From NCBI RefSeq assembly GCF_024502345.1, contig NZ_JALDNN010000001.1: a DNA stretch of 64,000 bases. The stretch is one strand, 5' to 3'. Of the stretch, positions 3,031 through 18,113 are shown in pieces. A program made the translations under genes and the position numbers. Source of the stretch: Escherichia coli. GTDB lineage: Bacteria; Pseudomonadota; Gammaproteobacteria; Enterobacterales; Enterobacteriaceae. Every line of letters starts with the position of its first letter. Position 1 is the stretch's first letter. The notes under the pieces are model-generated. The model was not told where the DNA came from, did no database searches, and saw only the letters and a list, made by a program, of their open reading frames with translations.

Positions 3031-3228
3031 AACTCACTCCCTGTTCTTTATCGTTATATAAAAGTTTATATATTGAATATTTAGCGCGCTAACAATAGAG
3101 GGAGTCTACCCATTTTGGGTTAAGAATTATTAATCCATATCAATAGAAGGGTATGAGTAATAAGGTGGGATTATGTTGTATGTTCAAATCGCCGGATGTG
3201 TCGTATCCGGCGTTCAGTCGATAATGTA

Positions 3229-16782: not shown

Positions 16783-17673
16783 ATGATCAAGAAGACAACG
16801 GAAATTGATGCCATCTTGTTAAATCTCAATAAGGCTATCGATGCCCACTACCAGTGGCTGGTGAGTATGTTTCACAGCGTGGTCGCGAGAGATGCCAGTA
16901 AGCCAGAAATAACGGATAACCATTCTTATGGACTGTGCCAGTTTGGTCGGTGGATTGATCATCTGGGGCCACTCGATAACGATGAATTACCTTACGTTCG
17001 GCTAATGGATTCTGCCCATCAACATATGCATAACTGTGGTCGGGAATTAATGCTGGCTATTGTTGAAAATCACTGGCAGGACGCGCATTTCGCCGCTTTT
17101 CAGGAAGGGTTACTTTCTTTTACTGCGGCATTAACCGATTACAAAATTTATTTGCTGACGATCCGTAGCAATATGGATGTTTTGACGGGATTGCCGGGGC
17201 GTCGGGTTCTTGATGAATCCTTTGATCATCAGTTACGCAACACTGAGCCTCTGAATCTTTATTTAATGTTGTTGGATATTGACCGATTTAAATTGGTTAA
17301 TGATACCTACGGGCATTTAATCGGCGATGTAGTATTACGCACCCTGGCAACTTACTTAGCCAGTTGGACGCGTGATTACGAAACGGTTTATCGCTACGGG
17401 GGCGAAGAATTTATCATTATTGTCAAAGCGGCTAATGATGAAGAAGCATGTCGTGCAGGTGTCAGAATTTGCCAGTTAGTCGATAACCATGCCATCACAC
17501 ATTCTGAAGGGCATATCAACATTACCGTGACAGCAGGTGTCAGTCGCGCATTTCCTCAAGAGCCTCTGGATGTGGTCATTGGAAGAGCAGACCGGGCAAT
17601 GTATGAGGGTAAGCAAACCGGAAGAAATCGCTGCATGTTTATTGACGAACAAAACGTGATTAACCGAGTTTAA
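16783..17673 (+). CDS. dgcZ: zinc-sensing diguanylate cyclase DgcZ (CZB + GGDEF)
   Basis: ORF 16777..17673; ATG 16783 after aaaaaggagtgg gives MIKKTTEIDAILLNL...; RYGGEEF active-site motif. Confidence 0.9.
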   Translation: MIKKTTEIDAILLNLNKAIDAHYQWLVSMFHSVVARDASKPEITDNHSYGLCQFGRWIDHLGPLDNDELPYVRLMDSAHQHMHNCGRELMLAIVENHWQDAHFAAFQEGLLSFTAALTDYKIYLLTIRSNMDVLTGLPGRRVLDESFDHQLRNTEPLNLYLMLLDIDRFKLVNDTYGHLIGDVVLRTLATYLASWTRDYETVYRYGGEEFIIIVKAANDEEACRAGVRICQLVDNHAITHSEGHINITVTAGVSRAFPQEPLDVVIGRADRAMYEGKQTGRNRCMFIDEQNVINRV

Positions 17674-17683
17674 GCTCCGTTTA
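17667..17683 (+). promoter_or_regulatory. candidate PhoP box (aGTTTA-N5-cGTTTA direct repeat) overlapping the dgcZ stop codon
   Basis: Direct hexamer repeat gtttaa at 17668..17673 and 17679..17684 separated by 5 nt; consensus (T/G)GTTTA-N5-(T/G)GTTTA from established knowledge. Confidence 0.45.
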
Positions 17684-17711
17684 ACATTCATTGAGAAAAC
17701 TGATGCTACTG

Positions 17712-17816
17712 TGTCAACGATCCGTTATCAGTGCAGGAAAATGCCTGTTAGCGTAAAAGCAAAACACAAATCTATCCATGCAAGCATTCACCGCCGGTTT
17801 ACTGGCGGTTTTTTTT
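17712..17816 (+). ncRNA. mgrR: candidate MgrR sRNA (PhoP-activated, Hfq-dependent); 5' end approximate
   Basis: About 100 nt between PhoP-like box and a strong intrinsic terminator (ccgccgg-ttta-ctggcgg + T8) at 17791..17816; no ORF; K-12 synteny dgcZ-mgrR-mgtS. Confidence 0.45.
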
Positions 17817-17820
17817 CGCC

Positions 17821-17864
17821 GTCATAAAAATCAGGCCCCTTGTACACAACTGTAACAAGGGGCC
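17821..17864 (-). terminator. intrinsic terminator of mgtS (10-bp stem ggccccttgt/acaaggggcc, U-tract on minus strand)
   Basis: Hairpin 17834..17864; plus-strand aaaaa at 17826..17830 gives U-run downstream on minus strand. Confidence 0.6.
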
Positions 17865-17891
17865 GGTTAGGTGAGGGATTATCTCCGTTCA

Positions 17892-17987
17892 TTAGTCATC
17901 CCATTTGTGGCTGAAATACGCGGCCAGAAAACCAGAAAATAAAATTATTCCCAGTACGGCCATAAAAACATTCATATTACCCAGCAT
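17892..17987 (-). CDS. mgtS: 31-aa small inner-membrane protein MgtS (YneM), PhoP-regulated MgtA stabiliser
   Basis: Hand translation of minus strand: ATG..TAA gives MLGNMNVFMAVLGIILFSGFLAAYFSHKWDD; GGAGG RBS 6 nt upstream; not in ORF track (too short). Confidence 0.85.
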   Translation of the reverse strand: MLGNMNVFMAVLGIILFSGFLAAYFSHKWDD

Positions 17988-18113
17988 TATTTGCCTCCGT
18001 TTATGGTGTGGTGTGTTTCCTCGCTTACCTTAATTTTCATCTCAATGAGAAACATATTAGCAGAGGTAACCTAAACGAAGGCTGAATTAAATTTTTATTG
18101 TGTTCGACTTAAA

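Follow-up and report, generated by a model that had tools for sequence, protein, structure and literature searches.

The mgrR small RNA locus of Escherichia coli and the conservation of a predicted PhoP box 12 nt upstream of its −10 element

The locus described here comprises a small RNA gene that follows the diguanylate cyclase gene dgcZ and faces two small-protein genes on the opposite strand. The window, i.e., the whole 64-kb stretch of E. coli DNA that was analysed, carries these genes in the order dgcZ (+), mgrR (+), mgtT (−), mgtS (−), and ydeE (−), which is the order annotated in K-12 MG1655 (ydeE, mgtS, mgtT, mgrR, dgcZ). In MG1655, mgrR is listed as b4698, an ncRNA of 98 nt at 1622817..1622914 on the minus strand; the PGAP RefSeq record NC_013353.1 has no mgrR annotation. 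The features of the locus, given in window coordinates, are the following:

16783..17673, + strand: coding sequence of dgcZ (diguanylate cyclase), from the mapped PGAP annotation of NC_013353.1, the open reading frame list and the K-12 annotation
17667..17672, + strand: upstream half-site AGTTTA, 11 bp in phase with the conserved box, not conserved outside Escherichia
17678..17694, + strand: conserved predicted PhoP box CGTTTA-ACATT-CATTGA (−41 to −25), direct orientation, conserved in 73 orthologues
17704..17712, + strand: extended −10 element TGcTACTGT (TG at 17704..17705, hexamer TACTGT at 17707..17712), from conservation
17719..17816, + strand: mgrR sRNA, 98 nt, with +1 at G17719, from identity to b4698 and lying inside the RF01407 match
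17723..17753, + strand: 5′ stem-loop of the RNA (nt 5–35), from the fold
17754..17788, + strand: single-stranded A-rich region and seed, from the fold, with the pairing region U55–A68 at 17773..17786
17790..17816, + strand: Rho-independent terminator, with the hairpin at 17790..17809 and the U8 tail at 17809..17816
17788..17892, − strand: mgtT, encoding a 34-aa small protein, from annotation, convergent with mgrR
17892..17987, − strand: mgtS, encoding a 31-aa small protein of Mg2+ homeostasis, from the open reading frame list and annotation, convergent with mgrR

The identity of the RNA gene was established by comparison with K-12. Upon alignment, the 98-nt b4698 sequence fell on 17719..17816 of the + strand with 97/98 nucleotides identical. 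The sole mismatch, T4C at position 17722, is located in the unpaired 5′ part of the RNA, at a position that is variable in the Rfam consensus as well. Except for this substitution, nothing differs between K-12 MgrR and the window gene, which have in common the strand relative to dgcZ, the neighbours, the terminator, the seed, and the A-rich stretch. When the 64-kb window was scanned with Rfam, the only match above threshold was RF01407 (STnc560, Hfq-binding RNA) at 17685..17898 (+), with a score of 281.9 bits against a gathering score of 55 (E = 1.8e-64); the bounds of this 214-nt model are not those of the mgrR RNA. The initial annotation had proposed MgrR here, and both the alignment and the Rfam score bore out its strand, position, and size. 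It had also named the K-12 alignment beforehand as the check to be made, and this alignment placed the gene on the + strand at the same place, not on the other strand or elsewhere. The surrounding sequence is widespread in the species: a 301-bp query (17600..17900) was present in 5414 of 5426 complete E. coli genomes, at an identity of at least 99% in 5089 records. On the strength of these sequence comparisons, 17719..17816 (+) is assigned as the mgrR sRNA gene, an already known and ordinary gene. MgrR was reportedly described by Moon and Gottesman in 2009. It is of interest as a link between the sensing of Mg2+/Ca2+ by PhoQ/PhoP and both LPS modification (eptB) and resistance to antimicrobial peptides.

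Published work describes MgrR as a 98-nt RNA with a central adenosine-rich, ARN-like stretch, a pairing region at U55–A68, and a 3′ U8 tail; it is a class II Hfq-binding sRNA that depends on PhoP/PhoQ and represses eptB and ygdQ (PMC6239178). The window RNA folds with a minimum free energy of −25.9 kcal/mol (z = −2.9, 200 shuffles) into a 5′ hairpin (nt 5–35), a largely open middle (nt 36–71), and a terminator hairpin (nt 72–91) followed by the U tail. A strong intrinsic terminator, as had been noted at the outset, is indeed present: its 8-pair stem, six pairs of which are G-C, encloses a 4-nt loop at 17790..17809 and leads into a T8 run ending at 17816. No other terminator-like site was found on the + strand between 17400 and 18200. 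Like the class II Hfq-binding sRNAs ChiX and MgrR (PMC6239178), the window RNA combines a terminator and U-rich 3′ tail with an A-rich, ARN-like stretch. It matches K-12 MgrR exactly in the A-rich stretch and the U8 tail, and no difference from class II is detectable by sequence. When the unstructured core (nt 36–70) was paired with the K-12 eptB leader, the best duplex joined MgrR nt 54–69 to eptB positions −7 to +9, across the start codon, at −17.6 kcal/mol. This energy is not significant (z = −1.2; 25 of 200 shuffles were as good), and the location of the duplex, which matches the published U55–A68 region (PMC6239178), was the only aspect counted.

To place the locus in a wider context, orthologues were collected by scanning the GTDB representative genome of each species with a pattern of 19 nt from the seed, which leaves the box out. 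The scan returned 84 stretches. Five chance matches, seven stretches too near a locus end, and a promoterless second copy in one locus (L015) were left out. The chance matches came from Atopobium, Moraxella (two loci), Mycoplasmataceae, and a gammaproteobacterial MAG (L026, L046, L060, L066, L078). A seed match in a 'Caldithrix' MAG (L009) proved to be E. coli-like contamination; it was too near the locus end and did not enter the promoter analysis. With the window counted in, the promoter set numbered 73 orthologues from about 25 genus-level groups. Among these genera are Escherichia, Salmonella, Citrobacter, Enterobacter, Kluyvera, Lelliottia, Leclercia, and Kosakonia, as well as Pluralibacter, Phytobacter, Silvania, Siccibacter, Yokenella, Huaxiibacter, and others.

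The RNA architecture recurs across this set. Of the 20 orthologues that were folded, taken from different genera, most kept the seed largely unpaired between a 5′ hairpin whose sequence diverges and a terminator with U8–9. These per-sequence folds replaced an RNAalifold prediction on the MAFFT alignment, which recovered the terminator only, the 5′ hairpins being misaligned by indels. The invariance of the 19-nt seed among the orthologues follows by construction from the search pattern; the flanking TT and ACCG are conserved too. In an alignment of 30 orthologues, one terminator pair (columns 88/98) changed in a compensatory manner from AU (20 sequences) to GC (5).

The promoter is conserved as a block. 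Each of the promoter-bearing orthologues (73/73) contains exactly one copy of the pattern xGTTTA-N5-xRTTxA-N12-TAnnnT, which served as the anchor and is expected by chance at roughly 2e-4 per sequence. In the window, the corresponding layout is a box at 17678..17694, a 12-nt spacer at 17695..17706, the −10 hexamer at 17707..17712, and a further 6 nt before +1 at G17719. The 5′ end and the −10 element, which the initial annotation had left unclear, are here placed at G17719 and TACTGT by homology and conservation. With one vote per genus, conservation was distributed over the region as follows:

17667-72, upstream half-site of the 17667..17683 repeat: 0.11 bit per column
17678-83, half-site common to the repeat and the conserved box: 1.82 bits per column
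17689-94, downstream half-site: 1.36 bits per column
17707-12, −10 hexamer: 1.22 bits per column

Within the hexamer, the first T, the A, and the last T do not vary. In columns free of the anchoring pattern, A17694 stands at 0.93 and the TG at 17704..17705 at 0.94 and 1.00; this conservation of the TG in unanchored columns points to an extended −10 element. When 34 representatives were aligned with MAFFT L-INS-i without constraint, the same conserved block emerged; conservation broke off sharply 5′ of 17677, and the region of the upstream half-site was unaligned and variable. The gene upstream varies between genera, and the box is kept. No promoter was assigned to mgrR by a simple sigma-70 scan, as would be expected of an activator-dependent promoter without a −35 element. 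A full-text literature search for either box sequence or for the mgrR promoter returned nothing.

By the published criterion for PhoP boxes, (T/G)GTTTA-N5-(T/G)GTTTA with at most 2–3 mismatches (PMC7667037), the E. coli box is a poor match: CGTTTA-ACATT-CATTGA carries four mismatches (C1, C12, A13, and G16), more than are allowed. Half-sites of the form ATTGA and GTTGA do occur among listed PhoP boxes, i.e., those of pipD and orgB (PMC3335776, Table 1). In Enterobacter, the downstream half-site reads TGTTGA or CGTTGA, and a box such as CGTTTA-CGCTT-TGTTGA has two mismatches overall. The arrangement of box and −10 element can be compared with known PhoP promoters. In architecture I, a single box in direct orientation lies 12 nt upstream of the −10 element; mgtA, phoP, slyB, pmrD, and yrbL are examples and show class II behaviour, with the activation of mgtA being independent of the alpha-CTD (Zwir et al. 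2012, PMC3335776). The mgrR promoter has in common with these five the direct box at 12 nt that replaces the −35 element. It departs from them in its promoter-proximal half-site, which is of the weaker form xRTTGA (CATTGA in E. coli), and, in Escherichia, in an extra in-phase GTTTA half-site 11 bp further upstream, inside the end of dgcZ.

This extra half-site belongs to the direct repeat AGTTTA-AGCTC-CGTTTA at 17667..17683, to which the initial annotation had drawn attention as a PhoP-box-like element overlapping the dgcZ stop codon. Its coordinates and the overlap were confirmed, the TAA at 17671..17673 lying under the first half-site and the spacer, and the dgcZ reading frame ending at 17673. 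The gap of about 30 bp that had been estimated between the repeat and the RNA was close, as the RNA starts at 17719, 36 bp past the end of the repeat. Of the two half-sites of the repeat, the 3′ one alone, CGTTTA at 17678..17683, is shared with the cross-genus box; the upstream one is not conserved outside Escherichia. As a statistical signal, the repeat by itself is weak. The 64 kb contain a single exact core GTTTA-N6-GTTTA where 0.13 would be expected, and 12 of 100 shuffled sequences had one or more copies. The looser pattern KGTTTA-N5-KGTTTA, with two mismatches, gave 22 matches in the window against 19.3 expected; in the absence of enrichment, it was dropped as evidence. Another candidate PhoP site flagged by this pattern, GGTTTActggcGGTTTT (17796..17812, one mismatch), falls within the mgrR terminator and was rejected, the hairpin loop being unconserved among the orthologues.

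In E. coli, the three half-sites are spaced in an 11-bp phase (17667, 17678, and 17689), and either register is geometrically plausible. The alternative to the 12-nt box is that the functional site in this species is the repeat at 17667..17683, by itself or jointly with the conserved box, and that it operates in architecture III with alpha-CTD dependence, as at rstA. Promoters of architecture III carry their box 21–23 nt upstream of the −10 element (23 nt in rstA, 21 nt in ompX), and rstA requires the alpha-CTD (PMC3335776). The repeat fits this arrangement, for it ends 23 nt before the −10 element at 17707, i.e., within the range and at the exact rstA distance, in an architecture that is functional (PMC3335776). 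It is also the better match to the strict consensus (two mismatches vs four), with two perfect GTTTA cores in a core pattern that is unique in the 64 kb, and a weaker in-phase upstream element is found in Citrobacter (TAGTTx) and Salmonella (TGGTTx). Conservation, however, tells against it. The upstream half-site, at its 0.11 bit per column, is absent from most genera, its mean match to GTTTA being 4.0/5 in Escherichia, at most 3.5/5 in all other groups, and about 1/5 in most; the 12-nt box is kept in all. In other words, the 23-nt register, unlike the universal 12-nt register, is unconserved outside Escherichia. The half-site varies within the genus too: one divergent E. coli lineage (L019) has AGTTTT in its place, and E. 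albertii (L005) has it displaced by 1 nt. Moreover, it is formed by the Val and stop codons of dgcZ (GTT-TAA), so that coding constraint accounts for it and it may be a by-product of these codons. We consider a functional site at 17667..17683 unlikely on balance, and it is similarly doubtful that the half-site at 17667..17672 contributes in Escherichia. The box 12 nt from the −10 element (17678..17694) is probably the principal functional PhoP site. As judged by conservation across genera, the predicted PhoP box under evolutionary constraint is this one, not the better-looking repeat over the dgcZ stop codon.

Two further alternatives concern the transcript itself. According to one of them, the true product would be the STnc560 unit of about 214 nt (17685..17898) in place of the 98-nt RNA, as might be read from the RF01407 match, which covers model positions 1–214 with full posterior probability. 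The composition of the match argues otherwise: the first 34 nt of the model fall on promoter and not RNA, taking in the −10 element, the spacer, and one half of the conserved PhoP box, and its last 82 nt lie over the 3′ region of minus-strand mgtT/mgtS with its hairpin. Between these segments, the strong terminator with its U8 ends at 17816, and 98 nt is the length both in the K-12 annotation and in the RNA studied in PMC6239178. A 214-nt transcript is accordingly very improbable. Slightly less probable still is an mRNA or dual-function RNA that encodes a small protein from the + strand frame 17711..17827 (GTG start, 38 aa). Although the 38 codons are uninterrupted, the start at 17711 is upstream of +1 at 17719, which leaves the start codon outside the RNA; in the 5′ hairpin, the orthologues differ by indels of lengths not divisible by three; and conservation is centred on the terminator and the unpaired seed, as is typical of an sRNA that acts by base pairing.

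The preferred reading of the locus is thus mgrR with a PhoP-box promoter, producing an Hfq-dependent, trans-acting RNA of 98 nt, and we regard it as very likely. Our own evidence for it consists of the K-12 identity, the Rfam match, the synteny, the fold, the terminator, the conservation of box, −10 element, seed, and terminator, and the location of the eptB pairing. For PhoP dependence, Hfq dependence, target repression, and class II activation, we draw on the literature or infer them. On this reading, the promoter that starts transcription at G17719 would lack a −35 element and have the PhoP box at 17678..17694 in its place. At low Mg2+/Ca2+, phosphorylated PhoP would bind the direct repeat and recruit RNA polymerase in the class II manner known from mgtA and phoP. 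Contacts to Hfq would be made by the U tail, as the site for the proximal face of Hfq, and by the A-rich, ARN-like stretch of the RNA; targets, eptB among them, would be repressed by pairing of the seed (nt 55–68, 17773..17786) across their start of translation. Repression of these targets would in turn alter LPS modification and sensitivity to antimicrobial peptides.

On the convergent strand, mgtT overlaps the RNA gene. The stretch downstream of the repeat had been described in the initial annotation as ORF-free, which does not hold: mechanical reading frames cross it, and the annotated mgtT overlaps the mgrR terminator, its last 29 nt (17788..17816) being antisense to it. The mgtT frame also shares one base with the stop codon of mgtS. 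Ribosome profiling and tagging have revealed the MgtT protein (bioRxiv 10.1101/511675), which is described as PhoQP-dependent and encoded in an mgtS-mgtT operon (PMC11429745). Three of four Escherichia loci (the window, L005, and L019) are the only ones with the full mgtT frame intact; the fourth, E. whittamii (L045), carries a frameshift. In-frame stops, or divergence past about 20 residues, are seen in Citrobacter and several other genera. mgtS, for its part, is adjacent and convergent to mgrR in 46 loci. On the minus strand, a hairpin at 17864..17834 (−22.6 kcal/mol) is followed by U5 inside the mgtT frame, and from its sequence it looks like the mgtS terminator. From the arrangement of the locus, two speculative consequences may be sketched. 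Binding of PhoP in two registers (I and III) might give Escherichia an induction threshold or dynamic range other than that of the genera with two half-sites; separately, the convergent, PhoP-induced transcripts of mgrR and mgtS-mgtT, which share at least 29 nt at the mgrR terminator, might engage in cis-antisense pairing or transcriptional interference. Taken jointly, these proposals are tentative, and we would not expect them to hold. As a separate observation, mgtS possesses a conserved architecture-I box of its own on the minus strand, AATTCA-GCCTT-CGTTTA at 18088..18072, which is 12 nt from the hexamer TAATAT at 18059..18054.

The mgrR terminator is shared, on the opposite strand, with the gene for a small protein. 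The 3' end of mgtT falls within it, giving an antisense overlap of 29 nt (17788..17816), and the strand complementary to the mgrR hairpin and its U8 tract encodes the C-terminal GEKKPPVNRR of MgtT. The minus-strand features concerned, together with those of the mgtS promoter, are as follows.

Minus-strand features at the mgtT and mgtS genes (window coordinates)
17788..17892, minus: mgtT, encoding a 34-aa small protein
17864..17834, minus: strong hairpin (-22.6 kcal/mol)
17830..17826, minus: U5 following the hairpin
18088..18072, minus: predicted PhoP box of the mgtS promoter, AATTCA-GCCTT-CGTTTA
18059..18054, minus: TAATAT of the mgtS promoter

The hairpin and U5 (17864..17826) sit within the mgtT ORF and look like the terminator of mgtS. 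If the hairpin does terminate mgtS, synthesis of MgtT would need read-through into the 3' end of mgrR. The full mgtT ORF is intact in only three of the four Escherichia loci, namely the window, E. albertii (L005) and a divergent E. coli lineage (L019). A frameshift breaks it in the fourth, E. whittamii (L045), and Citrobacter and several further genera show in-frame stops or divergence in it. An mgtT identical to that of the window, with a nearly identical mgtS promoter region, also occurs on a contig labelled "MAG: Caldithrix sp." (L009, SMXE01000224.1); this contig probably comes from Escherichia and was wrongly binned into a Caldithrix MAG.

The terminator also holds a resemblance to the PhoP box. 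GGTTTActggcGGTTTT (17796..17812, plus strand), which covers its loop and 3' arm, differs from the consensus by one mismatch; it was rejected as a PhoP site because conservation of the loop does not extend to other genera, and the match is probably due to chance.

Database bounds differ from those of the gene. The match to Rfam RF01407 (STnc560, a 214-nt model) spans 17685..17898; the model begins 34 nt 5' of the mgrR +1 and therefore takes in half of the PhoP box and the -10, and it extends 82 nt beyond the terminator into the opposite-strand mgtT and mgtS. Its bounds should not be taken as those of the RNA. Among the two records examined, mgrR is annotated only in the curated K-12 record; the PGAP annotation of NC_013353.1 lists dgcZ, mgtT and mgtS and lacks the mgrR ncRNA, despite 100% sequence identity to the window.

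In the mgtS promoter, 12 nt separate the PhoP box from TAATAT in the window, a layout found again in most of the 46 loci in which mgtS lies next to mgrR in convergent orientation. Enterobacteriaceae bacterium RIT691 (L015) carries two mgrR copies about 1.6 kb apart (seed matches at 1438-1456 and 3032-3050, minus strand): one has a PhoP box and an extended -10 and adjoins mgtS, and the sequence upstream of the other lacks a PhoP box.

At the other end of the locus, in the region of L019 (SCPM-O-B-8794) aligned to 17667..17694, TTA replaces the dgcZ stop codon TAA, turning the upstream half-site into AGTTTT. The frame stays open up to the TGA within the downstream half-site CATTGA, and dgcZ of this lineage would therefore run across the entire PhoP box.
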